From the NCBI GenBank assembly GCA_963826525.1, contig CAWGXH010000003.1:320001-384000 (forward strand): 64,000 bases of DNA, written 5' to 3'. Every line of letters begins with the position of its first letter. The first letter of the stretch is position 1. Below, in pieces: positions 42,293-49,209 of this stretch. Under the pieces are notes generated by a model. The model was not told the origin of the DNA. It saw only the letters and a list, made by a program, of their open reading frames with translations, and made no database searches. Made by a program: the position numbers and the translations under genes. Origin of the DNA: an uncultured Methanomicrobiaceae archaeon. Lineage in GTDB: Archaea > Halobacteriota > Methanomicrobia > Methanomicrobiales > Methanoculleaceae.

Positions 42293-42459
42293 TACTTTTT
42301 TCAGGCTACCGTCGCTCGTTTCCGCTCCCTGACGGGAGATCCGCCCTCTCACGACAGCCCTGATGCGGGTGCTCCAGCCGGCATTGCCCTTCACATTCCG
42401 CAGGTCTCCAGTCAGATATAGTCCAGGAGTTACGCAGTTGGTGCCGTGTTGCATAGAGC

Positions 42460-42491
42460 CCATCAAATCATGACCCTCTCTGATTTGATGG
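42460..42491. repeat. Perfect 11-bp inverted repeat
   Basis: CCATCAAATCA-N10-TGATTTGATGG. Confidence 0.8.
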
Positions 42492-42516
42492 TCCTTCTTC
42501 TCTTCCACGGGTACCC

Positions 42517-44217
42517 TCCGGCAGCGCCTTCATATCTTCAATTCCGAGTCCCTCTTTAATCTATATCGACGGCGTCTACCGCGGTAAGCGCACGCGCCTC
42601 TCGTTCTCAACAACATCCTCGCAGGGAACCACACGATTGAAGCAAGGAAAGATGGGTACACTCCCGCTACCCAGAATCTACGGATCTTTGCCGGGAGTAC
42701 GTCATATGCTCGCTTATATCCGGTTTACGCTGGTGAAAGCGGCACAATTATTGTAAACTCCTCACCCCCCCGGCGCAACCGTATCCGTCGACTGCATACC
42801 GGTCGGATTTACATCAGAGGAGACCGGCATCTTTACTCGAAACTACGTCACCGTCGGATCGCACCTCGTCGACGTGGCAAAAGAAAATTATAGCGCATAT
42901 AACGAACTCGTTTACGTTGCAAACGGCACAACGGTCGTCGTAAATGCGTCTCTCGATCTGGCGGACGACGGCGACGGTCTCAACTTCACCTGATGAAAAT
43001 GGCTTTAGAGACGGCTTCGGCAACTGGCACGTCACCGATCCGAACCTCATCGACACCGACGGCGACGGCCTCTCCGACGGCTACGAGGCGGGATATCTCA
43101 TCACCGTGGGCGGAAAGGATACCACAAGCAGCGGAGCGACCCGAACCTGGTGGATACCGACGACGACGGGCTCGACGATTTCATGGAGGATTACCTGCGC
43201 ACCGACCCGTATGATCCCGAAACCGATCACGATCTCATCAAAGACGGGGAAGACGACGAACCTCTTGTCCCCATATATCTCCGGTATGCAACGGATCGGA
43301 TTCGTGACGAGATTGCGCTCCGGCTCGGTGCCGTCTTCGGAGAAACCGGCCTGAAGGGCGAAGCATGTAACGGATTGATTGGCGGAGACGTTTTTGCATC
43401 CACGCCGGCGTACGTTGCCGGCTGGATCATTTCAGGCCTCGCGGCAATTGGAGACGTCCGTGATTTCCTGTATGCGGCATCGCAATTCGATACTATCGGG
43501 GCAACACTCACCGGGCTGGGTATTGTCCCATACTTCGGCGATTGCGAAAAGACTGCCGCCGATATCGCAAAATGGATCGGAAAATATCCTGAAGGCATAC
43601 GTCCTCTGGCGAAATTGTTGGTCGAACAGAGAATCATTGATATTTTCGACGAGAGTGACCGGCTGAAGATCATCGACGACTTCTTCCCGGCGCGGGCGGA
43701 CGGCGTGAAGGTCGGGACGTATCTGAACACGAGAGTGATGACCTCGGTGTGGACGACCTTGCGAAGATGATGGGCCGCGGCGCCGATCTCTCCGACGTTG
43801 TTCATGTTATCAAGGTTGGAGATGATGCGATACCGCTTACGGCGACGAGGGAAGGCCATTATGTCGCTCGTCACGTTACCGGAACGGAAGGCGTTGATGA
43901 CCCCACCTCGTTTTTCCCGACGACAGAACGCGTCATTAGAAATGGCGAGCCGAACCCGGGTACTTCGTCAATGACGCCGGAGGCTATGCAAGCACAAATC
44001 ATCGACTGGATCAAGGAAGCACTACCTCGGGATCCAACTCTAACTGAGTGGCCAAAACAAAAGAAAATCGTAACTTTGGATCTTGAACCTGAAGTTGCGG
44101 GAGTTGGACGAATACAAATAGTTGTTCAAGGAGATACTGGAGTACATACAGTCATTCCAATACATGGCTCTCAGGTTTATAAGGTACGCTAACGGCCAAT
44201 GGTACCCAACACGGTAG
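42517..44217 (+). pseudogene. Polymorphic toxin gene, 5'-truncated and frameshifted: 2x PEGA, DxDxDG repeats, pre-toxin region, putative RNase C-terminal domain
   Basis: Stitched frames read SSIPSPSLIYIDGVYRG..., VNSSPPGATVSVD..., DTDGDGLSDGYE, DTDDDGLDD, IGDVRD...LGIVPYFGD, GHYVARH..TSFFP, IQIVVQGDTGVHTVIP. Confidence 0.7.
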
Positions 44218-44226
44218 GAGATAACA

Positions 44227-45276
44227 ATGTTCAGAATCGTCTGGGATAAAGAGGATGTCGAGCGGGGAATCAAATCCGGAACCGGCGAAGCCGGCCCCCT
44301 CGGTTTTTTAACGCCTATACAGGTTTACGCGAACGGCGTTGATATGTCGGGGCTTGAAGCAGCTCCAAAAGGAAACATTACCCATTTTGATGGTCTCTTC
44401 TTAGAATTCTTCTACATATTCCATTCCATAGACCCGGAGAACCTGCAGGAAGAGAAGTTCCACATGAGTTCAAGCGTGAAAAACCGTGTTGATGGTGGGA
44501 GTTTCAATCTCTACGTCTATCATGATAAAGAATCTGACATCCTGACTTTGAAATACCGCAACTTCATGCATCCCGAATACCGTATACTGGAGATCCCGTT
44601 GAAAGATTTCACGGAAGGAATCCTTCAATCGGCAACCGAAATGCTTGAAGGGGTATTACGGGTCGCTCCGGAATTTGAGGGTGATGTTAACTATATTGTG
44701 CTAAAAGAGGATATGGAACTCATTCGAAACTGGTATCAGGAGCGGTACGGAACAGCGACCGTTCCACGTCCTCTTATTAAGAGAGGATCTTCCACGAAGA
44801 CGAAAGAGGGGCGCATCCGCTGGATCGGCGTTGAGGATGCTGCCGACCCGGGGATGATCGACTGCGTGCAGAAGATCCTCGACATCACGTATCCCGACGA
44901 TTACCTGGCGTGCGTACAAAAATACTCTCTGGGGTTCCCCTACCCGTACAACATCATCGTCAATGAAAGGCTCAAGGGGGGGAGGAGCCAGTTTGTCCGC
45001 CTCCGTGGTTTTGATCCGGAGAAACCGATGTCGTACGTATTAACCCTCTACTACGCCTTAAATTGCCCGGCACCGGGCATCAATGCTTATCTGCCGGACA
45101 ACGTTGTCCCCTTTGCCGATGCTTTCGGTGACGACAGACTCTGTTTCGATTACCGGGAAGGTTTCCCTCCGAAAGTGGTGGACCGGAAATCTCACGAACT
45201 GGACCCAGATAGATCGGTGATACTTCTCTGCAACTCATTTACGGAGTTGTTTGAGATCATGGAACGGTGCGAGTGA
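44227..45276 (+). CDS. Immunity protein: unknown N-domain fused to SMI1/KNR4 (SUKH) domain
   Basis: GGAG RBS; YPDDY, VVPFADAFGDDRLCFDY and LCNSFTELF motifs; directly downstream of the toxin tip. Confidence 0.8.
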   Translation: MFRIVWDKEDVERGIKSGTGEAGPLGFLTPIQVYANGVDMSGLEAAPKGNITHFDGLFLEFFYIFHSIDPENLQEEKFHMSSSVKNRVDGGSFNLYVYHDKESDILTLKYRNFMHPEYRILEIPLKDFTEGILQSATEMLEGVLRVAPEFEGDVNYIVLKEDMELIRNWYQERYGTATVPRPLIKRGSSTKTKEGRIRWIGVEDAADPGMIDCVQKILDITYPDDYLACVQKYSLGFPYPYNIIVNERLKGGRSQFVRLRGFDPEKPMSYVLTLYYALNCPAPGINAYLPDNVVPFADAFGDDRLCFDYREGFPPKVVDRKSHELDPDRSVILLCNSFTELFEIMERCE

Positions 45277-45284
45277 ATGGCTGA

Positions 45285-45745
45285 ATGACTGGAAGAATGA
45301 GGTGTACCGTGAAAGATATTCAGTGGAGCAATACTGAGGAGAGACGGAACGACTTTGATGAACTGATTCCCTGCATCGAGAAAGCATTTCGTCTGACCCT
45401 GCCGGACGATTTTAAACTCTGTGCGATCGAAAACGGTGGAGGGAGCCCTGTTCCGTGTCGCTTCGACGTCGGGGACGAGAAAGGGAAGACGCTCGTGAGA
45501 CTGTTGAGTCTCGACCCGAGATCGAAGGACTTTTTCTGGAAGCATTATGCAGCCGTGGGATGGTATCCGCGAGGTTATGGCCGGGATCGTACCCGATCGC
45601 GCAGGAGCGGGAAGGCAACTACATTAGCCTGGATTACGAGAAGGGTTTCCCGCCGAGGATCGCGTATGTGATCGGAAGTGTGAGACCCCGGCGGAAAGTT
45701 GTCATATCGGACTCCTTTACGGCGTTTCTGGAGACGCTTTACTGA
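45285..45745 (+). CDS. SMI1/KNR4 (SUKH) immunity protein (frameshift near 45570)
   Basis: IEKAFRLTLPDDF...NGG, YPIAQEREGNYISLDY and ISDSFTAFLETL motifs. Confidence 0.8.
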
Positions 45746-45769
45746 AGCGGAACCCGACGGTGTAGGTGA

Positions 45770-45901
45770 GAGAGGAGAATCCCCACTGGACTGTATTATC
45801 GTGAGATGGTTCCGCCAAACGGTCAGTATATCAGGGTTGCAACGAATCCCGATGGGAGGATCTTATCGGCATACATGGTCAAAAAACTGCCAACGGTGTG
45901 A
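45770..45901 (+). pseudogene. Orphan toxin C-terminal tip fragment
   Basis: Frame with no N-terminus: ...NGQYIRVATNPDGRILSAYMVKKLPTV*, ending 5 nt before the next ATG. Confidence 0.5.
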
Positions 45902-45906
45902 TTCCT

Positions 45907-46374
45907 ATGGAGACTGAAAAAATTAATTTTTGGATCAAGCAGGGATATTTCCACCTCTCATACGGTGAAGTATCTCTCACGCGGAGTAAAAGTGGAAACG
46001 ATCGGATCATGGATTTTTGCGACTATCTGATGGAGGCAATCCACGATGATTGCATCCCACTCCTCCTTCGCGGAGAGACCTGCAGGATCATGCTCCTTGA
46101 CGATCCGCATGTCCTGTTTTTTGTCCCGAAAGGGGATATGGTCACTATCATCCTCGAGTCCGAAGTTACGGAATGGTTTGAACCCAGGAGCGAGTTTACG
46201 GCCCCCATGAAAGAATGGTTCAGGGCGGTACAGCAGGTAACTCTCGACCTGATTCAGGAGATGCAGGATTTTCCGGGGAAATACTATAAACTCGTGCCGG
46301 TTTCATCAATCATCGAGAAATATCATATCACCGAGAAGGTGCTTCGGGAAGCGGGATACCTGAAGGAGGGATAG
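45907..46374 (+). CDS. Putative immunity protein
   Basis: AT-richer ~155-aa ORF right after the orphan tip; FTAPMKEW..AV resembles LEIPLKDF..GI in the 44227 protein. Confidence 0.6.
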   Translation: METEKINFWIKQGYFHLSYGEVSLTRSKSGNDRIMDFCDYLMEAIHDDCIPLLLRGETCRIMLLDDPHVLFFVPKGDMVTIILESEVTEWFEPRSEFTAPMKEWFRAVQQVTLDLIQEMQDFPGKYYKLVPVSSIIEKYHITEKVLREAGYLKEG

Positions 46375-46489
46375 AATTTTTACATCTGCCCGGCAGGACA
46401 CCGGATTGAGCGGACAGCGGAAAGGAGTATGGGAACAGTTCAATTTCCTCCCTGTAAACGAATAACAAACCTCCAAGGATAGGCATCGC

Positions 46490-47272
46490 ATGAAACCGAA
46501 TGCACCAGAGCGCCGGACTCAATCCGGCACCGACAAAAAACCGGGAAGCCATGGGAATCACTGGGGATGCGTCACGCAGTCCACGGACGAGATCATCCAA
46601 TCGGTGGAGTGGGCGTTGAAGGAGGCGGAAACCGCCGACGTCCGTGAACGGAACGGTCGCGAGATCGCCGCGTACATCCCGGAGTCCCGTTCTCTCACGA
46701 CGTGTGCCATAACCCTCGATCGATCGGTCTCTACCGGCTACCCGGTCGCCGTGGACGGCGTCGTCCACGAGGTGACGGTACAGCGCGTCGAAGAGTGGGC
46801 GAACGAACTCGAAGGACAGGTGGTCGGCTCGATCGGCGACGCTGCCCTGGCTTTCTTCGACACCCGGTACTACCGGAACGGCGATCGTTACCGGGAGGGG
46901 GACAGGCATCTCTTCGCCCTCGCTGCCTTTGCCTACGTGCTGCAGAAGGCCGAACCCCGCACGATCACGGATGCGGAAGGGAAGGAGCACTCGACCCGGA
47001 ACATGGCTGCATACCGCCCGTTCCCGCAGGGCGACGTCGACGACTTCGCGTATCAGTCGCTGGTAAAGAGCGTCGAAACCGTTTCGTTCTGCGGAAAGAC
47101 CGTCTACCGACTCACGGTCACGCTTTTTCGGCTGCCGGATGAGGGCGGCGATTACCGCGATGTCGACATCACGCTGTATGCCGCTGAACATGTGACCGGG
47201 GGCTACGCTCCCCGCGTGGGTGACGATATCATGGGAATTCTCTGGCTGCAGGGCTCCCTTTCTCCCGGATAA
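46490..47272 (+). CDS. Hypothetical protein in the immunity cluster
   Basis: 260-aa ORF with GNHWGC near the N-terminus and P.VGDDI.GILWLQG at the C-terminus. Confidence 0.75.
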   Translation: MKPNAPERRTQSGTDKKPGSHGNHWGCVTQSTDEIIQSVEWALKEAETADVRERNGREIAAYIPESRSLTTCAITLDRSVSTGYPVAVDGVVHEVTVQRVEEWANELEGQVVGSIGDAALAFFDTRYYRNGDRYREGDRHLFALAAFAYVLQKAEPRTITDAEGKEHSTRNMAAYRPFPQGDVDDFAYQSLVKSVETVSFCGKTVYRLTVTLFRLPDEGGDYRDVDITLYAAEHVTGGYAPRVGDDIMGILWLQGSLSPG

Positions 47273-47300
47273 CTGAAGAGCAGCGCAGGGGTCTCCTCTC

Positions 47301-47410
47301 GACGACACGTATCGGGATACCGACGACCCCGATCCGCTGACCCGTGCAGCAACCGACGAGATCAACCTCGCCAGGATCGCGCGCGAGATCCTGGCCGGGG
47401 CGACCTATAG
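47301..47410 (+). pseudogene. Fragment of a second toxin gene (repeat/pre-toxin junction)
   Basis: DDTYRDTDDPDPL...IAREILAGATY resembles DHDLIKDGEDDEPL...IRDEIALRLGAVF in the main toxin. Confidence 0.4.
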
Positions 47411-47431
47411 GCTGCCCGACGGCTCCTTCTC

Positions 47432-47762
47432 CTGGCTGGTGACCGTTTCGCCAGATTGTTCCAGTTCCCTCCTCAACCGAAACTCGGTCATAGAATAGAT
47501 GAAGAGGCAGAGCACCATGATCATCGCTAGCGCCTGGATGCGTTAAAAAATCGGGGAACAGATAGAGACGCCGTTCGATGAACCCGAGGCCGTTGAGCAC
47601 CAGTGCTTTGGCAACCTGAGTATGAGTGAGGTGGTGACGGGTTTTGAAGATCGCGCAATTGATAACCCCGGCAATACCGAGGGAATCGTAGGCATCGGCG
47701 ACGATGCCGAGGTGACCGGCAGAGAGGATCGATTCGTCATCGAAACCGCCGATCAGGGGCAT
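47432..47762 (-). pseudogene. IS1634-family transposase remnant with a large internal deletion
   Basis: DUF4277-type N-terminus (GHLGIVA...LVLNGLGFIERRLYLFPDF) joined at ~47545 to the C-terminal RIQALAMIMVLCLFIYSMTEFRLRRELEQSGETVTSQ. Confidence 0.88.
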
Positions 47763-47913
47763 ACCGATTGATTTCGGCTAAAAGTACAAGGATCGTGCGG
47801 TTTTCAATTATTCAAAGGAAGGATTCGGTTACTGCGGATGATGGGTTACCCGGTAGCGGACGTGATTATGCCCGCCGTCACGGCAGAACGTGAAAAAAGA
47901 AGAGGTTGTTCGT

Positions 47914-49209
47914 TTACATCCTTTTGCGGACGACGAAGATCAGCCCGAAGACTGCAAGAGCACCGAGTGCCGCGAAGGGCAGTGCACCGGACTGGGTCGG
48001 GTTCGCGATCGGGTTTAAGGATGCCGAGACGTAACTGGTGCTGCCGGCATTCACCTGCACGCTGTCCGACCAGTCCTGGTACCCGGAGACCTGCACTTTT
48101 ACCGTGTGCGATCCGGGGGAGACATCGGTCAGGGTCAGGGGGGTAATGCCCTTGTAGGCGTTGTCAAGGTAGATGTCCGCACCTGCAGGCGAGGACGAGA
48201 CCGATATCGAACCGGTTGGGCCAGGCGGGAGCGGGGTCATCGCCGCGGAGACGGGGGTGGTCGTGCTGGACTGGACAGCAACGGACGTCGAGTAGTCCTG
48301 GTACCCGGAGAGCGACAGCGCCACGGTGTGGGTTCCCGGGGTGACGCCGCTGACGACGAGCGCCTGGGTAGCGGAGGTCTGTCCCTGGTAGACACCGTCG
48401 ACGGAGACGCTTGCACCGGTGGGTGACGAGCTGACGGAGATATAACCTGGGTTCTGATCGGGAATCGGGCTCATCTGCGCGTTCACGTACGAGGTGACGC
48501 CGGGGGAGACCGTAACGGTCGACTTCCAGTCATAGAAGCCGCTCAGGTCGAGCTCGATGACGTGGCTCTTTGCGGAGACGCTCGAGAGGGTCAGGGGAGT
48601 CTTACCCTTGTAAGCGGCATCCATATAGACGTAGGCACCCGACGGGTTCGAGGAGACGACGACCGCCCCCGGCTGCGCGATGGCCTGCAGCGGGAAGAGG
48701 ATGGTCGACGTCTGGCCTGCACTCACCGAGACGGTCGTCGAGTAGGGCTGGTAGCCGGGCAGGTCCGCTTCGATCTGGTAGGTGCCGGGGGTGATGCTGC
48801 TGATCGTCAGCGGGGTGACGCCGCGGTAGTTGCCGTTCAGGTAGATGGCAGCTCCCGAAGGCGTCGAGGTTGCATAGATCGAACCGCTGGTTGCCGTCGG
48901 GTTGAGCGTGACGTAGACGTCGACGGTCTCTCCTGCTGCCGGTTCGCCCGGAAGGCTTCCGGCTGCCGATTTGTAGCCCGACATCTCGAGCCGGTAGGTC
49001 TGGTAGGGGCTTCCCGTCGTGTAGACCGGTACCGAGAGGACACCCTGCGCGATCTGGCCCTTGTAGCCGCCGTCGAAGTAGACGGATGCACCGTCCACGT
49101 TACAGTGAACGGTGTACCAGCCTTCGCTCCCGCCGATACTCGCTGCCGAGGCACCGGCACAGAGGACGAGCAGGGCGAGTCCGAGAATTATAGATCTGGT
49201 TGTTTTCAT
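47914..49209 (-). CDS. Multi-PEGA-domain cell-surface protein
   Basis: Signal peptide; five S.P.GA..Y.DG.Y.G.TP-type repeats; C-terminal QSGALP + TM helix + RKR. Confidence 0.92.
   Translation of the reverse strand: MKTTRSIILGLALLVLCAGASAASIGGSEGWYTVHCNVDGASVYFDGGYKGQIAQGVLSVPVYTTGSPYQTYRLEMSGYKSAAGSLPGEPAAGETVDVYVTLNPTATSGSIYATSTPSGAAIYLNGNYRGVTPLTISSITPGTYQIEADLPGYQPYSTTVSVSAGQTSTILFPLQAIAQPGAVVVSSNPSGAYVYMDAAYKGKTPLTLSSVSAKSHVIELDLSGFYDWKSTVTVSPGVTSYVNAQMSPIPDQNPGYISVSSSPTGASVSVDGVYQGQTSATQALVVSGVTPGTHTVALSLSGYQDYSTSVAVQSSTTTPVSAAMTPLPPGPTGSISVSSSPAGADIYLDNAYKGITPLTLTDVSPGSHTVKVQVSGYQDWSDSVQVNAGSTSYVSASLNPIANPTQSGALPFAALGALAVFGLIFVVRKRM

Follow-up and report, generated by a model that had tools for sequence, protein, structure and literature searches.

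A stretch of 64,000 nucleotides from an uncultured Methanomicrobiaceae archaeon (assembly GCA_963826525.1, contig CAWGXH010000003.1, positions 320,001 to 384,000; hereafter the window) carries, in the spacer between an ArsR-type gene and a gene with PEGA domains, a run of toxin and immunity genes bracketed by remnants of an insertion sequence (IS) of the IS1634 family. On the left, the flank hexamer TTGCCC (42384–42389) is followed by a 33-bp non-coding IS1634-family terminus on the minus strand (42390–42422), which is the end distal to the transposase start. On the right, also on the minus strand, lie a fragment that corresponds to ~positions 190–310 from the distal end of the IS and encodes ...AMIMVLCLFIYSMTEFRLRRELEQSGETVTSQ (47422–47543), and a second fragment comprising the N-terminus of the transposase (DUF4277), its upstream region and the proximal terminus (47545–47845), after which the flank hexamer TTACCC follows at 47846–47851. 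The two hexamers, which agree at 5/6 positions, form a putative target-site duplication. An earlier reading of the letters alone (the original prediction) had described the locus as a toxin-immunity cassette packaged between the ends of a hollowed-out IS1634 element, and the strings it drew on, namely TTCACATTCCGCAG at 42390–42403, CTGCGGATGATGGG at 47832–47845 and the two hexamers, were all found where it had placed them.

As that prediction had also stated, the two 14-mers are complementary at 9/14 positions with the inner seven exact, a degree of complementarity that, taken alone, is not beyond chance; the nature of the ends was instead established by comparison with intact elements. BLAST of the archaeon's own assembly (3.06 Mb, 16 contigs, 87.6% complete, 5.3% contamination) located a sole full-length copy at C4:1640911–1642629 (1,719 bp). 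Window 42391–42422 matches the last 32 bp of this copy (C4:1642629–1642598) at 29/32 positions, with an E value of 3e-5 against the 3.06-Mb genome. The next match, 198 bp further in, pairs window 47432–47543 with 112 bp of the C4 copy (C4:1642432–1642321; 84%), the fragment being 81–87% identical to relatives' copies, and window 47545–47848 matches the opposite end of the C4 copy (C4:1641214–1640911) at 70%, with 74–76% identity between the 47545–47845 fragment and copies in the other genus of the family. The three matches run colinearly along a single strand and keep the order and orientation of the full-length copy.

The same boundaries were obtained from an alignment of the window with the C4 copy and 10 relatives' copies (11 non-window copies in all). 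The end at 42390 corresponds to a conserved terminus, CCCACATTCCGCA, in 10/11 of these copies, L021 being the one without it; the window reads TTCACATTCCGCA here and agrees with the consensus as far as 42422, similarity ceasing after ...ATAGT. On the proximal side, similarity to 9/11 copies ends exactly at 47845, with the remaining two either differing there or being cut by a contig end, and a nested copy in G096 has, read inward, the same proximal terminus as the window. Intact IS1634-family ends thus match the two 14-mers, in the C4 copy as well as in the relatives' alignment, and both window ends are confirmed, at the level of sequence homology, as genuine IS1634-family termini.

IS1634 elements are described as 1,500–2,000 bp long, with 5–6-bp AT-rich target repeats and ends of the form C-----YT, and as common in Euryarchaeota (PMC2266710, in the part consulted). 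The intact relatives of the remnant share the family's length (1,719–1,726 bp, except for one of 1,958 bp with an additional internal stretch), its 5–6-bp duplications and its DUF4277 and DDE_Tnp_1 domains, both of which were identified in one intact transposase by Pfam scan, and the intact transposases at L014 and L022 score 408 and 411 bits on the NCBIfam model NF033559, 'IS1634 family transposase' (cut-off 100). The window remnant retains DUF4277 at 55.9 bits (Pfam); alone on NF033559 it reaches 16.4 bits, under the cut-off of 100, and it is DNA-homologous to the intact copies. The window element differs from its family in measuring 5,456 bp end to end, of which only ~456 bp are IS sequence, which exceeds the 1,500–2,000-bp range, in lacking a working transposase and in enclosing 5 kb of unrelated genes. 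Terminal bases in the relatives are CCCACATT, following the family pattern; the window's distal end, TTCACATT, starts with T at position 1, and its proximal end read inward, CCCATCAT, has AT at positions 7–8.

The remnant is heavily decayed. Between the fragments at 47422–47543 and 47545–47845, 1,106 bp of the IS middle have been deleted, at a place that coincides with a short A-rich similarity, so the description of a transposase remnant without its middle was accurate; besides this deletion, ~positions 34–190 of the IS are missing, and the two transposase pieces are mutually out of frame. One detail of the original prediction fell: the string ETCGM*, read from the 42390 end, is not the end of the transposase, because the last 33 bp lie past the real stop (...EKYYT* in intact copies). 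The C4 full-length copy is itself frameshifted, and tblastn detected no intact transposase of the IS1634 kind in the archaeon's own 87.6%-complete assembly. The unit is now dead.

To define the right cargo/IS junction, we used a three-way alignment of the window, the IS copies and toxin 'handles' (a conserved part of the toxin modules described below) from G024. In relatives, the toxin handle reads ...TCCTTCTCCTGGCTGGT and then CGGCGAGGAG, and the IS reads ...TTCGTCTGGCTGGT and then CACCGTCTCGCC; both hold the 9-bp string CTGGCTGGT (in the IS at ~position 190), and the window changes from toxin handle to IS exactly within it (47432–47440). The cargo and this IS piece were thus joined by microhomology-mediated deletion or by illegitimate recombination within a toxin gene and not at an IS end. 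The left junction falls in a unique 85-bp spacer (42423–42507) and has no recognisable homology or microhomology. No homologue of 42423–42507 was found in the archaeon's own genome or in any fetched locus, and the longer interval 42423–42991 likewise has no DNA homologue in these sequences, with only 34–46% protein similarity to PEGA domains. The spacer contains a strong hairpin (42460–42491), in which a perfect 11-bp inverted repeat, CCATCAAATCA ... TGATTTGATGG, encloses a 10-nt loop and is followed by a pyrimidine-rich run; its fold has an energy of −28.2 kcal/mol (z −4.4), and it may represent a terminator or what is left of a different element.

Judged by its genes, the cargo is a ~5-kb low-GC slice of a polymorphic-toxin array, holding a dead toxin module, three intact and one frameshifted immunity-type genes and two orphan toxin fragments, all on the plus strand. 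The label 'toxin-immunity cassette' was therefore right as to toxin and immunity content and wrong as to completeness, what is present being a truncated, largely pseudogenised slice. Toxin module A (42508–44192) consists of two PEGA domains, TSP3 repeats (TSP3_bac match in Pfam), a conserved handle and a C-terminal toxin domain, CT-A. Mapping by tblastn with the 1,429+294-aa protein of G047 and with the intact module of metagenome locus L040 revealed five frameshifts (near 42590, 42770, 42985, 43135 and 43735), a stop eight codons early and the absence of ~1,160 N-terminal residues, with 42508 corresponding to residue 1162 of the G047 protein. CT-A is 41–43% identical to the intact domains at L040 and L028. 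It has no significant NCBIfam or Pfam match, and a PDB sequence search with the CT-A alignment returned a best E value of 0.11 and nothing meaningful. Leads on toxin activity are weak, comprising an EndoU match to the G047 domain at E 0.012 and Atlas scores of 0.84–0.86 for RNase-type toxins.

Starting 35 bp past CT-A, immA1 (44227–45276) encodes an intact 349-aa protein with a SUKH/SMI1-KNR4 domain (PF09346, 42.9 bits, cut-off 25.4) that is 66% identical at the amino-acid level to the product of the gene following CT-A in L040 and L028 (dN/dS 0.2). It is followed by immA2 (45285–45745), a second SUKH gene with one frameshift near 45580, which appears as two open reading frames with half-domain SUKH matches and to which the intact 151-aa L040 homologue maps in two frames by tblastn. 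The next feature is a 36-codon orphan tail of a second toxin domain, CT-B (45791–45900), which remained after cassette displacement and shares 94% identity with the final 36 residues of the toxin in G047. This tail overlaps the start of immB (45898–46374), an intact 158-aa gene without a family match in Pfam or NCBIfam; its product shares 95% amino-acid identity with that of the G047 gene overlapping the toxin stop, and immB is presumed to be the cognate immunity gene of CT-B. Gene X (46490–47272; 260 aa, intact) is a conserved array member, with 84–87% amino-acid identity in seven metagenome loci and G047, 66% and 28% in two further loci, and 85% nucleotide identity in G024 (dN/dS 0.16); it too has no Pfam or NCBIfam match. 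Pairwise dN/dS values of 0.16–0.25 fit purifying selection during most of the time since these genes diverged. Finally, the start of an orphan toxin module C (47290–47440), a TSP3-like stretch with a handle ...PDGSFSWLV, is truncated by the IS. Module C has seven matches in G024 toxin loci (47313/47321–47440; 70.8–82.9% identical), five of 129–137 bases and two of 82–86. The neighbouring gene outside the element (47914–49209) encodes four PEGA domains (Pfam).

The full-length toxin of G047 shows what such a module looks like when complete: a surface protein of 1,429+294 aa with DUF2341, TSP3 and PEGA domains and a variable C-terminus, whose immunity gene starts in overlap with the toxin stop. 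In G047 the gene falls into two frames, of 1,429 aa and 294 aa, that meet at DHDLIRDG / EDDDDPLVP (L031, G047:C49, 9640–9713); the window copy reads through at this site, and the split could be a real frameshift or an assembly error. Metagenome locus L039 matches the window in the same three places as G047 does, with equal identities and lengths. The archaeon's own genome holds a second polymorphic-toxin locus (L030, C4:1291000–1298000) with DUF2341, Big_2-like, PEGA and TSP3 domains and many broken frames, the PEGA/TSP3 part of which has 42–66% protein similarity to window 42757–43245.

The cargo contrasts with its surroundings in composition and in relationships. GC content is 0.45–0.56 across 42400–46400 vs 0.61–0.68 in the flanks, and falls from 0.64 to 0.53 at the left IS terminus. 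Its closest counterparts lie in the other genus of the family: G047 (locus L031) is 85% identical to 43035–43814 and 90% to 45791–47316, and metagenome locus L040 (4009–8511) is collinear with 42992–47316 at 74–89%, so the cargo, being collinear with natural arrays in both, represents one contiguous slice. For the adjacent core genes, identity is 89% and 82% to the two same-genus genomes and 76–77% to G047. Because the 85–90% identity of the cargo to G047 exceeds this 76–77% core-gene background, and because its GC is low, sequence comparison supports a horizontal origin of the cargo from the neighbouring genus of the same family. At E≤1e-20 the cargo has matches in 10/55 family genomes including its own; the other nine all belong to the other genus, and neither of the two same-genus genomes (0/2) has a match. 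In both of the latter the ArsR-type and PEGA genes are adjacent, with spacers of 264 and 862 bp that contain neither cargo nor IS, and neither of the two carries the cassette here without IS ends. The central 93 bp aligned to the G001 spacer no better than shuffled sequences did (224/300 score as well; local and global alignment). The 862-bp spacer of the second genome (L004, G002:C3:299270–300110) is rich in G-/C-rich palindromic runs, for example GGGGAGGGG...CCCCTCCCC, and resembles neither the window nor G001.

TTGCCC and TTACCC, which agree at 5/6 positions, abut exactly the boundaries obtained from the IS alignment. Among random hexamer pairs from the archaeon's own genome, 0.66% agree at 5/6 positions or better with the boundaries fixed, rising to 4.3% if each boundary may slip by one base. 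That IS1634 elements make 5–6-bp duplications, as the original prediction stated, was borne out among the relatives, with direct duplications at L022 (TTTGAA, 6/6), at the outer IS of L041 (CGGTAT, 6/6) and at the IS nested in it (ATATT, 5/5), and is in agreement with the consulted part of PMC2266710. In G014 and G026, inverted pairs of copies carry swapped flanks (CTATGC and AAAAC; ATTAAC and ACGAA) and therefore mark inversions between copies. The pair in G014:C1 (L014/L015, ~1.37 and 2.54 Mb) implies a chromosomal inversion of ~1.2 Mb, and that in G026:C1 (L018/L019, ~0.20 and 0.76 Mb) one of ~0.56 Mb.

Solo ends and internal fragments of the family are common in the archaeon's own genome, which has four further scars (C4:492606–492665, C4:107572–107719, C4:88313–88416 and C4:1007766–1007963): one is a solo distal end of 60 bp, one a solo proximal end of 150 bp, and two are internal pieces. 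Relatives, too, have ends that are solo or truncated (L049, L053), and a solo end of 22 bp is seen in G006:C17. At L053 (G011:C7:75956–76618), a clean deletion has removed ~positions 29–222, nearly the same stretch that the cargo replaces in the window. Related ISs are nested at positions 71–91 inside the distal end once in L041 (2041–5700) and twice in G096 (L060, G096:C17, 1465–2123 and 4995–8001). The G011:C7 deletion, the solo end and the three nested ISs together indicate that the stretch just inside the distal terminus is unstable in this family, and the nested ISs point to an insertion hot spot in this AT-rich stretch. At L041, to which all of the matches listed in a BLAST search with the IS copies belong, a copy lies 57 bp from an orphan toxin module, from which it follows that IS1634 copies land beside toxin arrays.

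The comparisons show that both termini are genuine and colinear, that the IS has undergone deletions, and that the cargo is foreign and missing from the sister genomes; joint action of the two ends in a single transposition is what we infer. The reading we favour, to which we give about an even chance, is that an IS1634 transposon, either composite or loaded with cargo, entered this site whole and decayed afterwards. A toxin/immunity slice from the neighbouring genus would have become bracketed by IS1634 sequence, as two flanking copies or as one cargo-loaded copy, and the whole unit would have transposed via its two outer IS termini into the ArsR-type/PEGA spacer, duplicating a 6-bp target, TT(G/A)CCC. 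In the decay that followed, one deletion would have left only 33 bp of the distal terminus, another would have run from the toxin handle into the IS via the 9-bp microhomology, and a third would have taken 1.1 kb of the transposase gene. Transposition as a unit is favoured because it explains the outward-facing ends, the 5/6 duplication and the GC step at once; independent arrival of the cargo is by our estimate very unlikely, because the target would have been a 1.7-kb IS in a 3-Mb genome. The proposal that the cassette moved as one unit was refuted neither by the comparison with intact ends nor by that with relatives at this locus; it is partly supported, and draws on the 5/6 flank match and on parsimony. 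Whether it started as a hollowed-out single IS or a collapsed composite, the two options offered at the outset, cannot be separated from the remains.

Several observations weigh against this reading. The exact empty site is unreadable, homology to the G001 spacer extending only up to 42325 and resuming from 47881. The unit is a single instance: the 24-mer across the left junction had no match in genome contigs or metagenome contigs, and none of 12 fetched loci with the terminal 12-mer held cargo between ends (0/12), five of the 12 being cut at ≤1.9 kb by contig ends. That 12-mer has 20 exact matches in 11/55 family genomes, vs seven for the reversed control, and the terminus 19-mer occurs in seven bacterial records only, about the chance expectation. 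Two soil-metagenome runs contained 6–8% of the sampled words, with contigs in scattered pieces that bridged neither junction and so speak neither for nor against the unit. Being too short or too diverged, the two ends can be neither shown by their sequence to belong to one IS lineage nor excluded from it: the 33-bp end is nearest to the C4 copy (29/32), and nothing in 401 class-level genomes exceeds 76% identity to the proximal part of the right-hand pieces or 87% to their middle part. The window duplication is imperfect and GC-richer than the AT-rich targets usual in the family, a clear duplication is missing in three other copies (C4, 4/6; L016, 3/6; L023, ambiguous), and the archaeon's own genome carries at least the four other family scars listed above, solo ends among them. 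A composite origin would also require about three later deletions, and the microhomology junction would suit a later replacement within a resident IS equally well.

The last point leads to the rival that survives best, although we regard it as unlikely, in which an ordinary IS1634 copy first inserted at TT(G/A)CCC and incoming foreign DNA with the slice later replaced ~positions 34–190 of it by illegitimate recombination at microhomologies, perhaps anchored by IS homology on one side. The right junction, a 9-bp microhomology between toxin handle and internal IS, is what such an event would leave; the stretch concerned is the unstable one inside the terminus, deleted at 29–222 in G011:C7 and invaded at 71–91 in L041 and twice in G096; and fewer events are needed than for a composite, with the 5/6 duplication explained as well. 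On the other hand, integration of 5 kb via two illegitimate joins is rare, and a chance hit on a 1.7-kb IS improbable unless guided by homology, while the left junction shows neither homology nor microhomology and 42423–42507 has no homologue.

Independent scars, in which the slice came by another route and two separate ISs inserted at or near its borders and decayed, the 5/6 match being coincidental, appear quite unlikely. The abundance of solo ends and internal fragments in this genome and its relatives speaks for them, as do the imperfect duplication and the ends not tied to one lineage, but two insertions in the same orientation would have to bracket the foreign DNA with their outer ends outward, the flank match would be a 0.7–4% coincidence, and the GC step coincides with the left terminus. 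More speculative, and in our view improbable, is that the element is a genuine non-autonomous, cargo-carrying derivative of IS1634 with ~positions 30–220 as a recurrent loading dock, where inserted foreign modules could be moved, and passed between methanogen genera, by transposase supplied in trans; it is suggested by the deletion of this stretch in one relative and its occupation by nested ISs three times in others, and, if true, would mean that immunity and toxin cassettes travel among archaea on IS1634 elements. An assembly artefact joining DNA of a co-occurring organism from the other genus is very improbable, since, although the cargo resembles that genus and differs in GC, the assembly is partly contaminated and no examined read or contig spans either junction, synteny at this locus resumes on either side of the insert and an artefact would need two matching misjoins, the junctions share ≤9 bp, the IS pieces occur once in the assembly and are only 70–84% identical to the other copy, so that no long repeat could lead an assembler astray, and run X1, which may be the source sample, holds error-free pieces of cargo and flank at similar low depth.

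By analogy, the element resembles, or may once have worked like, a composite transposon. The closest parallel is Tn6330 (ISApl1-mcr-1-ISApl1), in which cargo is bracketed by ISs with a duplication round the unit, and in which the IS copies are later lost by deletion, leaving end remnants and immobilised cargo (PMC5821093, in the part consulted). Differences are that the window holds one 33-bp end and one gutted copy, with no intact composite or second copy found; that the IS is of the IS1634 family and not IS30, with an archaeal host and a cargo of toxin and immunity genes; and that one junction is a microhomology deletion and not an excision at an IS end. A composite transposon is by definition built on two IS copies, which the window element does not have now; under the composite reading it would derive from an earlier two-copy state. 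Nor, given its length and its lack of a working transposase, does it fit the definition of an IS. Cargo-carrying ('transporter') ISs and non-autonomous IS derivatives such as miniature inverted-repeat transposable elements, as listed in ISfinder and TnPedia, have ends that enclose non-transposase DNA; like the window element they need a transposase in trans to move, and unlike it, a single copy, they exist as repeated mobile copies.

The cargo, in turn, resembles polymorphic toxin systems, with a surface protein, a variable C-terminal toxin domain, a SUKH immunity gene next to it, displaced tails and repeated handles, and its anatomy is typical of an array after cassette displacement, as far as the consulted part of PMC3482391 describes such systems. 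The multidomain surface protein with its variable C-terminus is seen in G047, and the window has both an immunity gene downstream of the toxin and orphan cassettes; its toxin gene differs in being 5'-truncated, without the N-terminal 1,160 residues, and broken by the five frameshifts, and in having its PEGA/TSP3 delivery part on an archaeal surface protein. According to the same part of that source, archaea rarely have such systems (PMC3482391). In a search of open-access papers we found neither cargo bounded by IS1634 nor any archaeal polymorphic-toxin cassette carried by an IS, and composite or passenger elements are not mentioned in the consulted part of a 2026 survey of archaeal ISs (PMC13343696).

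For the host, any present benefit would be protection from neighbours' toxins, because the toxin module is dead and three immunity-type genes are intact. A general route that spreads conflict modules among methanogens, as the original prediction envisaged, has one dead example as its basis, and this single decayed case is an illustration of an established principle more than evidence of a new one, the kind of element being known and the host and cargo new. It provides a concrete, datable case in which part of a toxin array, including intact immunity genes, passed from one genus to another and now sits between IS ends, and it links an archaeal IS family with the movement of conflict genes. If transposition as a unit is the true account, IS1634 elements would mobilise several kilobases in methanogens, as composite transposons do with resistance genes in bacteria.

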